Virus record (IMG/VR): IMGVR_UViG_638341087_000022
Reading direction: 5' to 3' (one strand)
Length of the DNA: 43,322 nucleotides
From: a virus
Taxonomy: Duplodnaviria; Heunggongvirae; Uroviricota; Caudoviricetes
Shown: positions 2,835 to 10,871 of the stretch, piece after piece
Layout: the number at the start of each line of letters is the position of its first letter
How positions within the stretch are numbered: the stretch's first letter is position 1
Notes under the pieces: generated by a model
Seen by the model: the letters and a program-made list of their open reading frames with translations, nothing else
What the model was told of the DNA's origin: nothing
Databases searched by the model: none
Made by a program: the position numbers and the translations under genes

Positions 2835-5800
2835 TTATGCCTGAGTACGCAGCGCTTCAAGGCGGCGCAGGTCGAAGTCGTTCAGTTCGTCGGTGTAGTC
2901 AGCAGTGATTGGCGCTGGCCATTCACCTGTGTCGAATCCGGTTGCGATATTGCGCATCGCTTTGCGGTACTCGAGCATACCCAGCTCCAGTAGTTCAGCG
3001 GATGCCTCGATGATGGCGATCCAGTGGTAGTTCTCGTCTTTGTTGACGAAAATCCAGAAGAACTGATCCAGCGCTGCGGTTTCGCAGTACATAGCCGCGC
3101 TCAGGTGATAATCACGTTCAATAATTTCCCGGTGTAGCCTGGCGCGCAGGCTTTCCTGCTTAACATTCCACATGCTGATGGTTTTCAGGTCTGCACCTAT
3201 ACGCACGCCATCCAGGTCGATCTCAAGGTCAGGGCGCACACGAACTTCCAAGCCCGTCTCCTCGTCAAAACCAAAGTAGCTCACCTCAACGGCTCGGCTA
3301 GGGTGGGTCAGCAGCATGCCGGCGGTCGGGTGTGCCAGAAGCGCTTTTTGAATATTCAGCGCGGTGCTCAGCTGCTGGCGGGTGACCAGCACTTTTCCTT
3401 CCGGGTTATCGCGCCAGGCATCCAGCAGTTCGTCGGCAAATACGGCATCTGGTTTGACTGCCTTCACGGCCTGGATCATGTCTGCTTTGGTACCGGACAC
3501 TTTCAGTGGTGCCGGTTTCTGTGCTTCCTGAGCCACAAGGTCAGGGTTGATGATTGCCAACTGCTCCAGCAGCGCGTCACGGCTGCCGCTGGTTTTAACC
3601 GGCGGCGGCAGGGTGGCGTTGTACTCTTTAATGCATGCCTTCATTGCCGTCGCCGTCTGCTTCTGGTCACCATCAATACGCTGGAAGTCAGCTGGCAGCG
3701 CCATATAGGTCTGTGCCGTTTCTTCCAGGTTAGCGCCAAGCGGAACCTGCGGCGGCAGGGTGGCGTTGTACTCTTCCAGTAACACCTTGATGTCGTCGGC
3801 AGACAGCAGCGCCGGCAGGCTGGCATTGTGCTCATCGATAAAGGCGCGCAGGGTCGCGGCCGTTGTGAATGCGCCTTCAGGGATCACCGGTTCAACGCTG
3901 AATTCTGCGTCCAGTAGTTCAGGCTGCAACGCCAGCGCATGCACCAAGTTGCCCATGTCCAGCACCGCTGAGCGCTCTTTGACGATGGTTTTCTCTACGT
4001 GGCGCGCATTGAAGTACATCAGCGAAACGCGCGCATCTTTCACCTGGGTTGAGCTGATGCCGTTGGCGGCGTGGTAAACCTCGTTTGGCAGCCCTTCATA
4101 GCGGCCTGGCTCGAAATAAGCGGGATAAACAACAGCTGGTTCGTCAGATTGCGCTTCTGGCTCGGTTTGTGCTGCAACTGGTTCGGTTTGGCTTACAGAA
4201 TCGCTATTTTTGGCGACAGAATCCGTATTCTGGTTTACATCGTCCTTCTGGCTGGTATCTGACTCTTCACCAGACTCCAGACTGCTTTCGCCTGGCTGTA
4301 CTTCATCACCAGCTTGTTTTTCATCACTGACAGTTTCTTGAACCTGCACATTGCTGGTGGTCTCCGTAGCCTTTTTCGTGCCATGAGTTGCTGAGTTCTG
4401 CAGCAAAGCCGTAACGTCGAATATTCCGTTGCCGACATTTTTAACCAGTTCTTGTTCGACTTTCTGCGGTTGTGCTGCCGCTTCCTCTGCGCGGCGGCGT
4501 GCTCCTTCTTCACGCACGCGTTGCAGGTTCTCTTCGTGAGTGCAGAAGGATTTGCGCGGAGACTCCTTACCTTCAGGTTGGGGAATTTCCTGTGCTGCGG
4601 GTTCAGCCTCATGCAACGGCAATAACTCGACCGCGGAATTGAACGCGGCTGTCATGGTCTGGTTAACAAATTCCAGGTGAGCGACAGGAGTTAAATGAAT
4701 ATTTTCCGGTGCGATACGTACCAGGTTAAAAATAGCCGTGCGGTTAACACCCAGAACGCCTGGCTGATTGCGCAGGATGTTGCTCCATGATTTCCATGGT
4801 TCTTCTTTTTTGGTCACGATTTCTTTAGCGCGACGAAGAATGCTGCCCGGGATCTCGAAGTGGTTGAAGTCCATAGGCAGAAGGGCACACGCAATCTCTA
4901 AATCGAGAGTGTCCAGTGTGTGGTGTGCGTCAGGTCCACGGTCAGTGACGTAACCGCCGTCGGCATTAGTGCCGGAATCAGTACGCTGCACACTACTGAT
5001 GCGATTACCGGCGGCCCATTCGCGAACGAGGATACCGCGGTCGATGTGATCTGTAGCGAACCACAATTTCAAAAACTGGATTAAGGTTGCGAGTTCAGGG
5101 ATTTTTCCATCGACAGGGAAGACTTTCTTAACGGCATTCACGACTTTATGAATATCGTGCTCAATGGCTTTTTTGAATGCTTCCACATTCTCAGCTGCCA
5201 GCAGCAGGTTCTGGACGTACGCGTCATCGGTGTCCATCTCAAGGAGGACAATCTCATTTTTCTGCCCTGCGTCGATGTGATAGAGATATTCACCATCACC
5301 GATGAACTGAGCCAGTACGCGCTGGCGGAATGGCAGGGTGGCAACAACGATCAGGTTCGGTTGCTGTGTCTGCTGGGATTGCTCTTCGGTATCGACTTCA
5401 CCATCAACGACGCCACCTTCTGCCCGGCCGTTCTCGTCGGTCTGGATACCGTCCTCAACAGTGAGATCTTGACCCGTTGTAACGTCAGCAGCGTTGCTGG
5501 TTTCAGTTTTGAGCAACTGCAACTTACCACTGCGCCAGTCTTCTACCAGTTGATTGCGGTCACCGGCATCGGTGTTCACCCAGTCAGACATGAATGCAGC
5601 GATCAATCTTGGTTCGTGCTCTTCGTCTGGTGTGAAAATGTCCTTAACCGCCCGAATCATTTTCCACTCAGCATTCAGGCTGAGTTTGGCGGTCGCGGGC
5701 ACATCGTTCCTTGCCACAAGCAGGCTATGGAGATATGTATTGCCTTCATCCAGTGACATTTCGCTGGCAGCCAACTGCTGCTCTTTAGTGACGTGGGTTT

Positions 5801-6224
5801 GGTATTTATCGTTCATCAGATGGACGGCAAAGCGGACCGCTGGAGTACGGTTTTCAACCGGGACAATTTCGGACGCAGTCGCATCTTCAACGATTACGGT
5901 CGGAGTAGGTGTGTAGGGGGCGTAAACGGAACCAGTAGACACACCAGCGGCTTTTGGCAGCCAGGTGCGCCCATCGTCCTGAAGCTCGTAGCGATCACAC
6001 CAGGTAAAATCAACTTCACCTTCTTTCGGCAGGCCGTCGACAACTGGGAAATCAGTGCGAATCGGTTTGGCGTAGTCCTTACCCCGACCTGTTTCGATAC
6101 CTGCATCTTCCAGCGCAACATCCAGCATCAGATTGGCGCGAGCCTCGGTTTTAGCAGTGAACCAGACCACTGCATCTTGCTTTCCGGATTTCTGAGTGGC
6201 TTTAACCACATTAAAGAATTCCAT
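2835..6224 (-). CDS. recE: RecE-like exodeoxyribonuclease VIII (1129 aa) with internal repeats
   Basis: Very long ORF; C-terminal region resembles the RecE nuclease domain; paired with the annealing-protein gene; contains three EYNA(T/S)LPP-type repeat units. Confidence 0.7.
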   Translation of the reverse strand: MEFFNVVKATQKSGKQDAVVWFTAKTEARANLMLDVALEDAGIETGRGKDYAKPIRTDFPVVDGLPKEGEVDFTWCDRYELQDDGRTWLPKAAGVSTGSVYAPYTPTPTVIVEDATASEIVPVENRTPAVRFAVHLMNDKYQTHVTKEQQLAASEMSLDEGNTYLHSLLVARNDVPATAKLSLNAEWKMIRAVKDIFTPDEEHEPRLIAAFMSDWVNTDAGDRNQLVEDWRSGKLQLLKTETSNAADVTTGQDLTVEDGIQTDENGRAEGGVVDGEVDTEEQSQQTQQPNLIVVATLPFRQRVLAQFIGDGEYLYHIDAGQKNEIVLLEMDTDDAYVQNLLLAAENVEAFKKAIEHDIHKVVNAVKKVFPVDGKIPELATLIQFLKLWFATDHIDRGILVREWAAGNRISSVQRTDSGTNADGGYVTDRGPDAHHTLDTLDLEIACALLPMDFNHFEIPGSILRRAKEIVTKKEEPWKSWSNILRNQPGVLGVNRTAIFNLVRIAPENIHLTPVAHLEFVNQTMTAAFNSAVELLPLHEAEPAAQEIPQPEGKESPRKSFCTHEENLQRVREEGARRRAEEAAAQPQKVEQELVKNVGNGIFDVTALLQNSATHGTKKATETTSNVQVQETVSDEKQAGDEVQPGESSLESGEESDTSQKDDVNQNTDSVAKNSDSVSQTEPVAAQTEPEAQSDEPAVVYPAYFEPGRYEGLPNEVYHAANGISSTQVKDARVSLMYFNARHVEKTIVKERSAVLDMGNLVHALALQPELLDAEFSVEPVIPEGAFTTAATLRAFIDEHNASLPALLSADDIKVLLEEYNATLPPQVPLGANLEETAQTYMALPADFQRIDGDQKQTATAMKACIKEYNATLPPPVKTSGSRDALLEQLAIINPDLVAQEAQKPAPLKVSGTKADMIQAVKAVKPDAVFADELLDAWRDNPEGKVLVTRQQLSTALNIQKALLAHPTAGMLLTHPSRAVEVSYFGFDEETGLEVRVRPDLEIDLDGVRIGADLKTISMWNVKQESLRARLHREIIERDYHLSAAMYCETAALDQFFWIFVNKDENYHWIAIIEASAELLELGMLEYRKAMRNIATGFDTGEWPAPITADYTDELNDFDLRRLEALRTQA

Positions 6225-6363
6225 GTGAGATCCTCATTTTTGGGTGTTAGAATCCCCGGACCATTGATAGCGCCCATTGGGTTAACTTTGGTTTTAATGT
6301 TGTTTCCGGTGTAACTTTGGTCGGTACCACCGGACGTAGATCCCGCCTTGCGCGGGTTTTACG

Positions 6364-6525
6364 TTAGCCTTCGTGAGCCATCTGGTCGTGCGAAGCGCAA
6401 CGTTTGGAGCAATACTCTTTTTCTTTGCGCGCCAGCTGTGAGCCGTTGCGATAGAGAAGGGTGCTCTTGATTACTTCCTCCGTTTTAACCGGCTTGCCGC
6501 AATATCCGCATTTCTTGTCTAACAT
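6364..6525 (-). CDS. Small C4 zinc-ribbon protein (53 aa), not in the ORF track
   Basis: ATG at 6525 with GGAGGA RBS; CGYCG...C..RC cysteine pairs; sits in the position of Rac ydaE between recE and the kil-position gene. Confidence 0.4.
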   Translation of the reverse strand: MLDKKCGYCGKPVKTEEVIKSTLLYRNGSQLARKEKEYCSKRCASHDQMAHEG

Positions 6526-6536
6526 GACATCCTCCG

Positions 6537-6743
6537 CTAGTGGCTGAGTCCATGCCCCAGACCGTTCAGATAAACTTCAACCAGCAAATCCTTGGTGTAA
6601 GTCATTTCTACGCCGCGATGCAGATACAAACGTCCGCGAGCGTTAGCTGATGCCGTCCAGGTTGAGTCTTTGTGTTTGACGAGCATCCCCGGCTGAACTG
6701 CGCCGCGGTTTACTGTCTGTGTACCGTAGTGCTGATGAACCAT
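6537..6743 (-). CDS. Small early-left protein (68 aa), KilR-position
   Basis: Track ORF 6537..6887 begins with TTG; the only ATG is at 6743 and has a GGAG RBS; function not recognisable. Confidence 0.35.
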   Translation of the reverse strand: MVHQHYGTQTVNRGAVQPGMLVKHKDSTWTASANARGRLYLHRGVEMTYTKDLLVEVYLNGLGHGLSH

Positions 6744-6989
6744 GATGTTCTCCAGTTTTTCTGAGTGAACTTCGCTGGTGGTGCCGCGGCGCTGATCTTC
6801 ACGGTTGAGCGTTTTAACTCTGCAATTCACCACCGCGAAGCTCACTCTGTGCTTTGCCCTTGTCGCCAGGCTGGCGGAACGTTTCAAACCTACTGCGCGT
6901 TAATCTCACCACCTCATTCCGGTCTTCGTATGCCCCGGACAGCTTCTTCGTGGGCGTCCTGCTTTGGTGGTTGTGTTGATGGAGTAATT

Positions 6990-7030
6990 AAACACAATGT
7001 TTATTTACGCGTCAACATAATGAGTGTTTT
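6990..7030. promoter_or_regulatory. OL-like operator cluster
   Basis: Motifs AAACACAATGTTTA and CAACATAATG repeat the half-sites found in the cI-cro intergenic region. Confidence 0.35.
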
Positions 7031-7127
7031 TATATAAACAAAAAGTTTAGTTGGTTGCGCTCGTTGGCACGAGTAGTATGTTTTGTGGTCTATTTTGTGG
7101 TTATAAAAAAATCGATGAGGGTGAGTT

Positions 7128-7334
7128 ATGGATCGTGACGAACTGGAAGAAGACCGCGCAGCGTTTATTGCGGGGGAGATTGGTGGCGCAGTTGTCAGTC
7201 TGATAGCTAACGGGATTGTGATCAGCCGCGATGCGATTGTGGATAGTCTAGAGGCTAAGCGCAGGGTAGTGGGAAACGTCATTCACAAGTGGGTATTGCG
7301 GGATGCGGCTGCTATGGTGAGAAAAGGGCAATAA
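7128..7334 (+). CDS. Hypothetical small protein (68 aa)
   Basis: ATG with GAGGGTGAG RBS; ends just before a perfect hairpin terminator; opposite orientation to both flanking operons. Confidence 0.4.
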   Translation: MDRDELEEDRAAFIAGEIGGAVVSLIANGIVISRDAIVDSLEAKRRVVGNVIHKWVLRDAAAMVRKGQ

Positions 7335-7336
7335 AA

Positions 7337-7358
7337 AACCCAGTTCGGTAACTGGGTT
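7337..7358. terminator. Bidirectional intrinsic terminator
   Basis: AACCCAGTT-CGGT-AACTGGGTT, 9-bp perfect stem, flanked by an A-run upstream and a T-rich tract downstream. Confidence 0.55.
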
Positions 7359-7364
7359 ATTGCT

Positions 7365-7790
7365 TTATTCAACAGATGATGGGGGGGTCGGTGCTTTCTT
7401 AAAGATCGACCACTGAGAAATGTAGGTCAGCAACCTTGAGCTTAACTCGAGTTCTTTTTGTAATATTTCGTCATAACGTTTTTTTGCTGCTTGCATGGTC
7501 GCATCACTAGCGTGATTGTCATCCATAATGATCTTTAGCCTTTTCTTTTCTCGGCTTGAGCATATTGTAAATAACAGACCTGTAAATGACATTCCACCAA
7601 AATCCTTTAACGTTTTGATTACAAAAAGAAGAATCAAAGACAGAAAAGGAACAGATCTGTAGGCCCAATCACGAAACTCACCGTCAGGAAAGAAGATAGG
7701 AATAGCATCTGTAGCATAACCACATATGAGGGAGACAATTAGAAAAGGTAGTCCATTTTTAGCTACATTTTTAACGTTATCGTTAGCCAT
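7365..7790 (-). CDS. Membrane protein (141 aa), possible SieB-type exclusion protein
   Basis: ATG at 7790 overlaps the stop of the upstream gene by 8 nt; about three hydrophobic segments in the N-terminal half, charged helical C-terminus; AT-rich. Confidence 0.5.
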   Translation of the reverse strand: MANDNVKNVAKNGLPFLIVSLICGYATDAIPIFFPDGEFRDWAYRSVPFLSLILLFVIKTLKDFGGMSFTGLLFTICSSREKKRLKIIMDDNHASDATMQAAKKRYDEILQKELELSSRLLTYISQWSIFKKAPTPPSSVE

Positions 7791-8166
7791 GATTTTTTCC
7801 CGAGAACGATTTCGAGTCAACATGTAACTTTTGTGTTTTGACTACATAATACGCAAATCCAATCTTAACTAACCAATAAGCTACTGGTATGAGTGCTGCG
7901 TAAAGAGGGATATAGTACATAACCTTACCTCCTGTTAACCACACTATAACACCTAGCATCACTATTAGCGCGACAGAAAATGCTTTCAGCCCAACACAGC
8001 TATCAGGATGTGAAACACTGTTCCTTAGCAACAATATCCTGGATTCATCAAGTGTGTAAGGAATATCGCCAACATGATTTTCGATTTTTGGGAAGGTCTC
8101 AAATACTTCAACCCGATCAATCGAAATAATTGAGCTTGATTGATGATCTAAGCAAACTGCAGCCAC
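7783..8166 (-). CDS. Membrane protein (127 aa; 2 predicted TM helices)
   Basis: GTG start at 8166 with GAGAGGGA RBS, 2 nt after the stop of the upstream gene; C-terminal hydrophobic helices AFSVALIVMLGVIVWL and YYIPLYAALIPVAYWLV. Confidence 0.45.
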   Translation of the reverse strand: MAAVCLDHQSSSIISIDRVEVFETFPKIENHVGDIPYTLDESRILLLRNSVSHPDSCVGLKAFSVALIVMLGVIVWLTGGKVMYYIPLYAALIPVAYWLVKIGFAYYVVKTQKLHVDSKSFSGKNHG

Positions 8167-8168
8167 TG

Positions 8169-8492
8169 TTATCCCTCTCGAACCTTTAGTGATACTCGGT
8201 TAGCAGCAAATGTGGCAATGAAACCACATTCTACACATATAACAGGGAATGCCCATATACCTCGGCCAGCTGAATGAGGTAGAGGAAGGGTAATTATTGC
8301 AGGATAGTCTTGACTATCTTCTCGTGGAGGAACTCCCCAAAGCGTATGCTTACAAAGCGGACAGGCCATCTCGCCATGTTTTTCTTCGAGGCGTTGAAAA
8401 TAATCTCGAAATTCTTGTCTTGATATTGATAGCGTCAATGCTGTTGTATTGACACTTTCCTGACTTTTTTCTTCTTCAACCTGTTCGCCCAT
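8169..8492 (-). CDS. Zn-ribbon protein (107 aa)
   Basis: ATG at 8492; CPLC...CVEC cysteine pairs; first gene after cI, separated from it by a hairpin. Confidence 0.45.
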   Translation of the reverse strand: MGEQVEEEKSQESVNTTALTLSISRQEFRDYFQRLEEKHGEMACPLCKHTLWGVPPREDSQDYPAIITLPLPHSAGRGIWAFPVICVECGFIATFAANRVSLKVREG

Positions 8493-8603
8493 CTCAGCTC
8501 TCAATATAATGATAATTAACTGGTAAGTGAATTTTGCATATCGTTAAGATGTATCCCATTGGTACAGAAACATCTGAGGGGTAAGTAGCTTTTAACTACC
8601 GTG

Positions 8604-8999
8604 CTACTCACCATCCCCCTTAATCCGCCGTCCCATGTACTTGGCGTACAGTTCATCGAGTTCTTTCAACCGTAGAGATACGATCCGCAACATGTTCTGT
8701 TGTTCTTCTTCGTTTGGGAGTTGATTATAGAGTTCCAACAGTCTCCGTTCGTCGTGTCTCAAACCGTCCTTAGCATCCACGTCCTGACCTAGAACCCACT
8801 CAAGACTTACGCCTAGCGCATCGGCAAGTTTTATTGCTGAGCTTTTTCCTATCGCTCCTCTGACAAACCAGTTGTTGACTGATTGTGCGCTCACACCACA
8901 GATTCTCGCTATATCCGCTTTGGATATGCGCTTCTTCTCGATGATTTCATTTAACCGCCGAACCTGCGGGTTATCTGTTTGGTGTGTGTTTTTTCTCAT
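8604..8999 (-). CDS. CI-type repressor, HTH (XRE family), no S24 peptidase domain (131 aa)
   Basis: HTH segment ISKADIARICGVSAQSVNNW; divergent from a Cro-like gene across an operator-bearing intergenic region; too short for a LexA-like autocleavage domain. Confidence 0.7.
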   Translation of the reverse strand: MRKNTHQTDNPQVRRLNEIIEKKRISKADIARICGVSAQSVNNWFVRGAIGKSSAIKLADALGVSLEWVLGQDVDAKDGLRHDERRLLELYNQLPNEEEQQNMLRIVSLRLKELDELYAKYMGRRIKGDGE

Positions 9000-9031
9000 A
9001 TATCAAGATTCTAAACTAAAAGTTTATCGCC

Positions 9032-9072
9032 TCAACATTCATAATGTTGACTTGAACATAAACATAATGTTT
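9032..9072. promoter_or_regulatory. OR-like operators
   Basis: TCAACATTCATAATGTTGA (7-bp inverted arms) and AAACATAATGTTT (13-bp palindrome) between the divergent repressor and Cro-like genes. Confidence 0.5.
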
Positions 9073-9102
9073 AATTTGGTTCGTTATTACTTGGAGCCAA
9101 AT

Positions 9103-9336
9103 ATGAAAGCACTTGATAAAGCAATATGCATCGTAGGGGGTGCAACCCGTTTAGCAGAAAAGCTCAATGTATCCCCAATGACGGTCAGTCACTGGCGTCA
9201 CCGTGACAATGGATTCGTACCGGCTAACCGTGTCATTCCTATTTTCAATGCTACAGGTGTAACTCCACATGAGTTACGCCCTGATTTGTACCTCAACCCT
9301 ACGGATGGATTACCGGCTCAGGAAGCGAGGGCATAA
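9103..9336 (+). CDS. Cro/YdaS-like HTH regulator (77 aa)
   Basis: Internal ATG of track ORF 8872..9336 with GGAG RBS; HTH segment GGATRLAEKLNVSPMTVSHW. Confidence 0.6.
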   Translation: MKALDKAICIVGGATRLAEKLNVSPMTVSHWRHRDNGFVPANRVIPIFNATGVTPHELRPDLYLNPTDGLPAQEARA

Positions 9337-9338
9337 CC

Positions 9339-9878
9339 ATGCAGTCACTATCACTTCATCAAAATAGCGGATATCAAACGGCTGCGATGATAAATCGCAA
9401 TCAACCTGTCTCGGTAGATAAACATGACCAGATCCGCGATGCCGTTCGTGCGTGGGCGGGTGTAGATGGTCAGGATGTCGTTTCTGCTCTGATCATCGAA
9501 GAGTACCAGGCTCAAGGGGGAGACGAGATCACTTTCCCTGATGACCTCAGCCGACAGCGTCAGAAGCTTTTCCGCTTTCTGGATAACCATTTCAACAGCG
9601 AACGGTACCGCGAAAACGTTCGCCAGCTGACTCCGGCAATCCTCGCTGTCCTGCCGATTGAATACCGCAATCGTCTGCTACCAGAAGACAACGTAATGGC
9701 TCGTCTGGCAAGGCTGGAGAAGGAAACCAGCGAAGCGAAGATTGCTGTCGCAATGGATGCGCCACGTCATCAGAAGCTGAAAGAGTTGAGCGAGGGGATC
9801 GTGGAGATGTATCGCGTTGACCCTGGGTTAACCGGTCCGTTGATGGAAATGGTGCAGATTATGCTGGGGGCTATATGA
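9339..9878 (+). CDS. CII-position protein, possibly YdaT-like (179 aa)
   Basis: Immediately after the Cro-like gene and before O; assignment is by position and vague recollection only. Confidence 0.35.
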   Translation: MQSLSLHQNSGYQTAAMINRNQPVSVDKHDQIRDAVRAWAGVDGQDVVSALIIEEYQAQGGDEITFPDDLSRQRQKLFRFLDNHFNSERYRENVRQLTPAILAVLPIEYRNRLLPEDNVMARLARLEKETSEAKIAVAMDAPRHQKLKELSEGIVEMYRVDPGLTGPLMEMVQIMLGAI

Positions 9879-9962
9879 CCGGTTCAAAAATGGCGAAAGC
9901 CGCGGTGCTCGAACACCAACGGCTTTCAGGTGCAAAAACAGTGCGTAATTGCGGAGAACAGT

Positions 9963-10871
9963 ATGTCAAACACCGCTGAAATAATCAATTTCCCAAATAA
10001 AACCGAACAACCGGGAGGTCGTATGGCCGACCTGTCGAACGGGTATACCAAGGTCGCTAACGAGATCCAACAGCTTAAGCCTCGCCTGAGACTGTCAGGC
10101 CGGGAATGGCAATGTTTTGAGGCGGTGATCTGGCTTACCTACGGCTGGAACAAGAAACAGGACCGCGTGACAAATACGGTTATTGCCGAGCTTACGGGCC
10201 TGAGCGATACGCATGTATCGGACGCGCTTAAGTCTCTCGCAGAACGCAAAATCATCTTTTCACAGAAGCAGGGCATGATGAAAATCGTCGGTGTAAACAC
10301 TGACCTTTCAGCATGGATTTTAGACAAACCGGAAACGGGAAGAAAATTCCCGAAAACGGGAAAATCCTTCCCGAAATCAGGAATAACCTTCCCGAAAACG
10401 GTAGACACCCAATACAAGAACAAGAACAGTATTAAAAGATCTTCGTCCGAGAATTCTGACGAATCCTCTGACGCACGTCTGAAGAAATTTTTATCAACTC
10501 ATCCTGAAGCTGCGGTCTACACACCATCCGGTGCGAAGTGGGGCTCTGCTGAAGACCTCGAGACAGCTAAGTGGATTTCCTCCAGGGTGAAGCTGATTAA
10601 CCCAACCTGCAAAGCCCCGGACATGACCTCCTGGTCTAACACTGTTCGCCTGATGCGCCAGATAGACGACCGGTCGCACCAGGACATCTGCGCGCTGTAT
10701 GACTGGGCTAGCAAACACCACTTCTGGCAGACCAACATCCTGAGTCCCGAAAGCCTGCGTAAGCAGTGGGACAAGCTGACAATGCAGCGTAACGCCGGAG
10801 GTGAGCAGCGCGCTGTCAAGCCAGATCTGGACTTCAACAACACTGACTGGGCCTATGGGGTGATCCGATGA
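9963..10871 (+). CDS. O: Replication initiator, lambda O-like (302 aa)
   Basis: N-terminus NTAEIINFPNKT and TYGWNK..DR match lambda O; iteron repeats are embedded in the coding sequence. Confidence 0.8.
   Translation: MSNTAEIINFPNKTEQPGGRMADLSNGYTKVANEIQQLKPRLRLSGREWQCFEAVIWLTYGWNKKQDRVTNTVIAELTGLSDTHVSDALKSLAERKIIFSQKQGMMKIVGVNTDLSAWILDKPETGRKFPKTGKSFPKSGITFPKTVDTQYKNKNSIKRSSSENSDESSDARLKKFLSTHPEAAVYTPSGAKWGSAEDLETAKWISSRVKLINPTCKAPDMTSWSNTVRLMRQIDDRSHQDICALYDWASKHHFWQTNILSPESLRKQWDKLTMQRNAGGEQRAVKPDLDFNNTDWAYGVIR
10326..10445. repeat. Replication origin: four iterons plus AT-rich tract inside O
   Basis: Four repeats of the TTCCCGAAAACGGGAA type followed by an AT-rich tract; same pattern as lambda ori iterons. 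Confidence 0.6.

Follow-up and report, generated by a model that had tools for sequence, protein, structure and literature searches.

A three-gene cassette behind the repressor of a Rac-like Escherichia coli prophage as a candidate phage-exclusion system

The Rex system of phage lambda consists of RexA, a soluble sensor of ~279 amino acids (aa), and RexB, a single protein with four transmembrane (TM) helices. The interval between cI and N, which holds rexAB in lambda and bstA in the Salmonella prophage BTP1, has been described as a mosaic hotspot and a defence site, and the way in which the sensor controls the effector in RexAB is still open after more than 60 years (PMC8585504). The BstA protein was reported at sites of phage DNA replication and is accompanied by a DNA self-immunity element (PMC8585504). 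RexAB-type genes are also located downstream of a CI-like repressor in Pseudomonas putida (PMC12894663), and a crystal structure of lambda RexA is available (PDB 8TWQ, cited in PMC12894663). The stretch of DNA analysed here, hereafter the window, is a Caudoviricetes record of 43,322 nucleotides (nt) from IMG/VR (IMGVR_UViG_638341087_000022). The region under study is the immunity region of a Rac-like lambdoid Escherichia coli prophage, in which three small genes, termed A, B and C, occupy the position equivalent to rexAB, directly behind a co-oriented repressor gene. The trio is a mobile cassette (moron) in a swap hotspot, its members are genuine genes under purifying selection, and it represents a good candidate for a new phage-exclusion system.

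All three genes are located on the minus strand. The repressor gene that precedes them (8604-8999, minus strand) encodes a 131-aa protein with a DicA/cI-like helix-turn-helix and without an S24 peptidase domain (Pfam HTH_3, 2.9e-8; Phage_CI_repr, 1.6e-5; phrog_8, 2.6e-19). Gene A (8169-8492; 107 aa) begins with ATG and ends with a TAA stop at 8171-8169. After a spacing of 2 nt, gene B (7783-8166; 127 aa) begins with a GTG at 8166, and gene C (7365-7790; 141 aa), with an ATG at 7790, shares its first 8 nt with the end of B (ATGGCTAA). The same three coding sequences are called by RefSeq in identical DNA of other E. coli genomes. A bidirectional intrinsic terminator at 7337-7358, the stem of which carries T-runs on both strands, ends the trio as well as a convergent gene of 68 aa on the plus strand (7128-7334). 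The GC content in windows within 7400-8599 is 0.37-0.43, compared with mostly ~0.49-0.54 in the flanks (4000-7000 and 9200-10400). The rex-equivalent position, the gene layout with its spacing and overlap, the two-way terminator and the AT-richness of the block had all been noted in an original prediction, which was made by reading the letters of the window, and each of these points was borne out.

A is acidic (pI 5.3) and contains a Cys4 motif, CPLC...CVEC, with a 38-residue insert. In an alignment of 36 diverse relatives of A, no column is invariant other than those of the four cysteines (C44, C47, C86 and C89); among the loci that contain A, B and C, conservation extends to the GRG.W.[YF]P element of the insert. 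The AlphaFold2 model of A (pLDDT 71.7) shows a disordered N-terminus, a helix at residues 25-39 and strands at 67-70, 78-86 and 92-96. The invariant cysteines and the zinc-ribbon fold of the model agree with the description of A as a Zn-ribbon protein in the original prediction. A is read as a cytosolic protein with two CxxC knuckles on a beta-hairpin/three-stranded fold, for which metal binding is predicted. Foldseek searches with the model returned zinc-ribbon proteins alone (among them TFIIS, Rpb9 and NrdR), none of which was significant.

B and C are predicted membrane proteins. B comprises a soluble N-terminal domain of ~59 aa, two hydrophobic segments (TM 60-79 and 82-109) joined by a 3-residue turn, and a basic C-terminal tail, with an N-in/C-in topology predicted by the positive-inside rule. 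Its N-terminal domain contains an invariant P..EN..G motif, and the second TM helix is almost invariant. C has two TM helices (15-33 and 46-62) and a further helix of weak hydrophobicity (66-79); its C-terminal helix is basic and amphipathic, and its tail is rich in proline. Conservation in C is found in a CGY motif, in an invariant P.G...WAY within the loop joining the TM helices, and in EK..L. These hydrophobic segments are in line with the earlier description of B as a 2-TM protein and of C as a second membrane protein. According to the predicted topology, the periplasm-facing turns span only 3 residues in B and ~12 residues in C, and the motifs that face the periplasm (GG[KRN].M.Y.PLY in B and P.G...WAY in C) belong to the most invariant residues. 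By mass, the three proteins would therefore be expected chiefly on the cytoplasmic side, as far as topology can be read from sequence.

The trio behaves as a unit. A, B and C were found together in the same order in 27 Enterobacteriaceae prophage loci, with identities down to 42%, 33% and 44%, respectively; in two of these loci, C had been overlooked by the gene caller. The three proteins have homologues in Enterobacteriaceae only, in 6-17 clusters among 5.8 billion. The ratio of nonsynonymous to synonymous substitution (dN/dS) is 0.11-0.22 where computable, and otherwise dS is saturated, with dN at 0.13-0.42. Locus L004 likewise has 2 nt between A and B, and B and C overlap there as well. The whole block is present in 5 of 5426 complete E. 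coli genomes, with carriers from seawater, human and chicken, and the trio is found in one deposited phage, PHB10; no homologue of C was detected on plasmids. In E. coli B18271 (L001 10627-11428), the prophage is apparently truncated right after ydaS, a partial baseplate J gene comes next, and recE carries a frameshift. This remnant nevertheless matches the window at 100% identity over the repressor and the trio, and the cassette has thus been kept in a decaying prophage.

The link to a repressor is nearly constant and does not depend on the kind of repressor. In 22 of the 23 loci examined, the first open reading frame (ORF) encountered upstream on the same strand encodes a phage repressor; the set includes one locus (L010) in which an A-like gene has other partners in place of the trio. 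The exception is L028, in which one extra gene (4504-4902), encoding a 132-aa protein with a hydrophobic N-terminal stretch, is wedged between the repressor and A. A short YoaK-like ORF of 32 aa (L003 7648-7746) occupies the same place in Cedecea. The repressors are either short DicA-like proteins of 124-132 aa or various S24-type cI proteins of ~211-253 aa; a subset was assigned with Pfam and the others by eye.

The slot behind the repressor exchanges its content. Two other complete E. coli genomes have the same flanks and a different two-gene cassette. The ends of the shared DNA in these genomes, H6/L002 among them, coincide exactly with the repressor stop and with the T-run of the terminator, in which the left edge of the swappable cassette lies. 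Only 6 of 80 IMG/VR prophages with a repressor at least 93% identical carry the trio, and the rest carry other cargo. Behind a repressor that is 99% identical, L049 (4466-5876) holds PDC-M11, a PADLOC candidate system, with component A at E 1e-133 and component B, which has an ASCH domain, at E 2.6e-49. The same slot is occupied by a gene for a HipA-like kinase in L085 (4567-5415), by a DUF3037 gene in L110 (5412-6218), and by genes for a 178-aa protein and a DUF1828 protein in L100/L101 (4526-5817); weak matches to PDC-M03A, PDC-M66B and PDC-M24B were observed for the occupants of L085, L110 and L100/L101. Further occupants are coiled-coil/TM pairs, and IS1 is inserted in some copies. An own terminator, a deviant GC content and presence or absence between conserved flanks, the features expected of a cargo cassette, are all found for the trio. 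Whatever its function, the slot behind the Rac-type repressor is a rich hotspot of cassette exchange. The two-gene cassette of E. coli 23CRST046 (L002 5058-5920), the type of which is also found in L038 (4439-5300), has its own terminator and encodes a protein of 141-149 aa with a weak DUF6941 match and a coiled-coil protein of 136-144 aa with a hydrophobic C-terminal stretch that resembles a TM anchor (sub-threshold SlyX/XhlA-like matches).

In the window, the stretch from the repressor stop to A contains no terminator-like site, and a strong one follows C, which makes co-transcription from the maintenance promoter the simplest reading; a lysogenic transcript would presumably originate at the repressor gene and run on into the trio. 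As few as 31 nt separate the repressor from A in other loci. The only promoter-like site found in the leader (8531-8503) was taken as a chance match because it would leave a 5´ untranslated region of only ~4 nt. A hairpin had been placed by the original prediction at about 8570-8603, between the repressor gene and A. The hairpin is real, while its position is 8576-8618 on the minus strand (10-bp core at 8580-8612), over the repressor stop codon. Its stem of 4 + 10 bp encloses a 13-nt loop and is not followed by a T-run, and its 5´ arm consists of the last repressor codons, including the stop TAG (8606-8604). The 161-nt region around it folds no better than shuffled sequences (z = -0.62), and the hairpin was rejected as a conserved regulatory element; it is absent from the leaders of other loci.

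A is the member of the trio that can be followed furthest. It matches phrog_4293 (E 3.7e-7), as do 35 of the 36 members of the A family (best E 9.4e-12), and this is the only library family found for any of the three proteins in Pfam, NCBIfam, PADLOC and PHROGs. The family carries no functional annotation, and membership is therefore silent on function. A search of 1.84 billion representatives with the A profile yielded 46 proteins at E ≤ 0.001, nearly all of ~100 aa, and outliers of 751 and 1980 aa look spurious. The former (P0051), a protein with cystatin-like repeats, is matched by the profile in seven stretches (E 1.4e-10) but lacks a Cys4 motif; the match is almost certainly spurious. For a locus search, the alignment of all 36 relatives proved too diverse, as did one alignment of a subfamily. 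No relative was confirmed when species-representative genomes were scanned with two A-family profiles, and a viral-contig scan with the Yersinia A-like protein alone gave no match.

Outside the 27 trio loci, A-like proteins keep their place behind a repressor and change their partners. In high-GC, Pseudomonas-like prophages (L113-L116), an A-like gene is located behind a cI-type repressor, and the next gene, the start of which usually overlaps the preceding stop, encodes a protein in which a cytoplasmic N-domain of 70-90 aa is combined with one TM helix and a coiled coil. Behind the A-like genes of L112 and L114, where a long co-oriented ORF upstream was not profiled, come genes for two 2-TM proteins in succession. 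Another enterobacterial subfamily (L119, L121 and L123) combines the A-like protein with a single-pass coiled-coil membrane protein behind S24-type or DicA-like repressors, and in L119 and L123 this pair adjoins the same 68-aa neighbour as in the window. Across these distant loci, the N-domains of the partners span 60-90 aa and are cytoplasmic; the partners are non-homologous to B and C, and searches of the partner proteins with the hidden Markov models of B and C detected no homology. In Yersinia phage vB_YenM_30.14 (L010 4980-6784), the order is cI, an A-like zinc ribbon (26% identity), two soluble proteins of 103 and 124 aa without a family, and N. L027 has a repressor of the same kind as L010 but carries the full A-B-C trio.

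A short motif, h-E-N-x-x-G/D...Y, was observed at about residue 30 of the second gene product in all A-like subfamilies and corresponds to residues 26-37 of B (~8056-8091 of the window). Examples from B and from the partners in L113-L124 are PKIENHVGDIPY, IIENMDGGMMY and IDNVDTS...VY. The motif may serve for docking of A. In the profile comparison it did not reach significance (hhalign P = 0.11), and it is therefore recorded as a lead only.

It is conceivable, although we regard the generalisation as doubtful, that the A-type proteins of phrog_4293 mark an unrecognised family of repressor-linked prophage immune modules in Enterobacteriaceae and Pseudomonas. In such modules, a conserved cytosolic sensor or regulator would be combined with interchangeable effectors, mostly in the membrane (B and C, single-pass coiled-coil proteins, or 2-TM pairs). 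Such modules would amount to a new family, for abortive infection or exclusion, that has a sensor fold of its own. Irrespective of function, phrog_4293 proteins can be used as a marker for further repressor-linked cargo modules.

A small, conserved protein of the cytosol is thus combined with partners that are interchangeable and mostly in the membrane, and the genes are tightly coupled in translation and placed, within a cargo hotspot, on the presumed lysogenic transcript. The best explanation of this pattern is an anti-phage module that is expressed in the lysogen. On balance, an anti-phage role of some kind, abortive or by exclusion at entry, appears probable. Position and architecture suggest, more tentatively, that the trio is a Rex-like abortive-infection module in which A controls or senses and B and C act at the inner membrane. 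The trio would be expressed in the lysogen on the repressor's own leftward transcript and would protect the host against other phages. A, the cytosolic zinc ribbon, would dock on the cytoplasmic N-terminal domain of B, and B and C, with four TM helices together and most of their mass facing the cytoplasm, would form a small inner-membrane complex. Upon infection, A would sense a phage product or be lost, and the B/C complex would then compromise the membrane, such that the energy supply of the infected cell collapses and the infection is aborted. This logic would be that of lambda RexA/RexB, with a soluble sensor and a membrane effector. Binding of A to B and of B to C, the anti-phage activity and the abortive mechanism are what we infer. 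If the trio is protective, it would be a defence system of three very small proteins without known domains that current defence finders miss, and a compact model of ~1.2 kb for a cytosolic sensor that controls a membrane effector.

Several observations weigh against this proposal. Neither Pfam nor NCBIfam gave a match for A, B or C, and no defence model was thus matched; PADLOC-DB 2.0.0 gave 0 families for the three proteins at E ≤ 1, and a search of the PDB sequence set with their profiles found no relative, RexA and RexB included. Fold searches returned generic zinc ribbons only, all at E > 0.008, and the model of C is of low confidence (pTM 0.38) and gave no usable fold match. The profile and structure searches that the original prediction had proposed therefore led from A to phrog_4293 and generic zinc ribbons, and assigned B and C to no family. 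Guilt by position, the main argument, is weak because the PDC systems of the hotspot are candidates only and the slot also holds insertion sequence elements. Moreover, it is from sequence that we infer the co-transcription of the repressor gene and the trio. In P. putida, two unnamed genes (PP_3897 and PP_3898 of KT2440), which may or may not be related to the trio, lie between the repressor and RexAB, and their deletion had no phenotype on two phages. Finally, the most conserved parts of B and C include the tiny turns that face the periplasm, a pattern that a block of DNA entry would explain no less well than an abortive mechanism.

Such a block would amount to superinfection exclusion without cell death, in which a B/C complex prevents genome entry in the manner of P22 SieA, T4 Imm and HK97 gp15, and A is an assembly or regulatory partner. 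Besides the invariance of the periplasm-facing turns in two small inner-membrane proteins, the placement of the genes for expression in the lysogen is consistent with this role, and alternative occupants of the slot include cassettes for membrane-anchored coiled-coil proteins. However, the periplasmic exposure of B and C is minimal, and it is the cytosolic A that is conserved across families, while the membrane partners change and are soluble in one phage. The entry blockers known to us are single proteins without a conserved cytosolic partner and without homology to B or C, and the SieA, Imm and gp15 families are absent from the profile matches of the two proteins. We consider an entry block unlikely.

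The tight translational coupling, and the adjacency of a small acidic zinc-ribbon protein to small hydrophobic proteins, would also suit a toxin-antitoxin-like or addiction module, in which B and/or C are membrane toxins held by A and serve the stability of the prophage or its own cycle, such as control of induction or timing of lysis. The intact, 100% identical cassette in the truncated prophage remnant of B18271 is in keeping with this role. Against it, A, B and C matched no toxin or antitoxin family in Pfam or NCBIfam, MqsA-type models included, and the module has three genes, not two; the location in a cargo hotspot and the frequent replacement by unrelated cassettes argue against a core phage function. 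An addiction module appears improbable, and it would overlap with the abortive model if infection releases the toxin.

A similarly low probability is given to lysogenic conversion unrelated to phages, in which the membrane complex would alter host physiology (stress tolerance, transport, envelope or colonisation) and the position behind the repressor would only provide constitutive expression. Morons in such positions can carry non-defence cargo, the trio has no defence-specific domain, and the carriers come from sources as diverse as seawater, human and chicken. Conversely, the family is strictly prophage-borne, with no plasmid homologue and no relative confirmed in the scans of species-representative genomes, and the alternative cassettes of the slot resemble defence candidates.

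That C is a divergent SieB, as the original prediction had suggested, and the trio a SieB-type abortive system, is essentially excluded at the sequence level. C has no Pfam match at E ≤ 0.1, 0 of 14 C-family members reach E ≤ 1 with any SieB model of Pfam, and the C profile aligns to Rac SieB with a probability of only 1.1% (hhalign); moreover, the slot and the strand of sieB in Rac are different ones. What speaks for it is a loose resemblance, in that C is small, begins with TM helices, ends in helical structure and is encoded in an immunity region of the Rac type. The accompanying statement that Rac-like phages carry sieB at this position was imprecise: K-12 Rac has ydaG and ydaF behind racR, and its sieB is convergent on the opposite strand.

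The remainder of the immunity region is organised around two operator regions. OR comprises two 15-bp palindromic operator-like sites (9012-9026 and 9059-9073) between the repressor gene and the cro-like ydaS (9103-9336, plus strand), to the right of which lie ydaT/cII (9339-9878, plus strand) and replication genes. OL comprises two operator-like sites (6989-7003 and 7035-7049) upstream of kilR, and kilR, ydaE and then a 1129-aa RecE follow to its left. The operator sequence TAAACnnnnnGTTTA is present twice in OL and twice in OR, and the 14-nt operator pattern gives 5 matches versus 0.43 expected. The two pairs do flank the trio, as had been proposed, but the 68-aa plus-strand gene also lies between OL and the trio. 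This gene, a member of phrog_3975, is inside the immunity region and outside the cassette, and it sits where K-12 Rac has sieB; its homologues adjoin several different cassettes, as well as the two-gene A-like module in L119/L123. Beyond the operator palindromes, a 43-nt inverted repeat with 81% complementarity joins the OL and OR regions (6986-7028 and 9034-9076). RecE (2835-6224, minus strand) has 1129 aa compared with the 866 aa implied by the recE coordinates of K-12 Rac, and its N-terminal and middle part is long, acidic and of low complexity.

The RefSeq accessions of the trio are not mentioned in the paper texts that were searched or in the DefensePredictor supplements; the E. coli prophage-defence screen of Brenes and Laub 2025 (Cell Host Microbe 33:1004) was outside that search. 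Among described systems, SieB of P22, lambda and Rac is, like C, a small membrane protein of the lambdoid immunity region, and differs in sequence, strand and slot. P22 SieA, T4 Imm and HK97 gp15 are, like B and C, small inner-membrane proteins encoded by prophages or phages, and act on superinfecting phages; they work as single proteins, whereas B and C are accompanied by a conserved zinc ribbon in the cytosol. Between an unchanged repressor and unchanged downstream genes, PDC-M11 and the other cassettes of the slot can stand in for the trio; their proteins are unrelated to it, and the PDC systems are predictions rather than validated defences. BstA of BTP1 is also encoded directly behind prophage repressors of different kinds in a mosaic hotspot (PMC8585504), but is a single protein without similarity to the trio. 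The closest parallel is provided by lambda RexA/RexB and the RexAB-type PP_5643/5644 of the P. putida P1 prophage, which share the slot and the orientation of the trio and, like it, are apparently cargo expressed in the lysogen on the repressor transcript. The combination of soluble and membrane components is shared as well, and the TM helices of B and C add up to four, the number in RexB. In contrast, there is no similarity in sequence or fold, and three small proteins correspond to two: none has the size of RexA (~280 aa), the soluble part being a 107-aa zinc ribbon, and B and C contribute two TM helices each in place of the single four-TM RexB. The proteins of the trio and their A-centred architecture, which apart from the phrog_4293 match of A are in none of the searched libraries, appear to be new, and the kind of element to which they belong, cargo behind a repressor and probably an exclusion system, is a known one.

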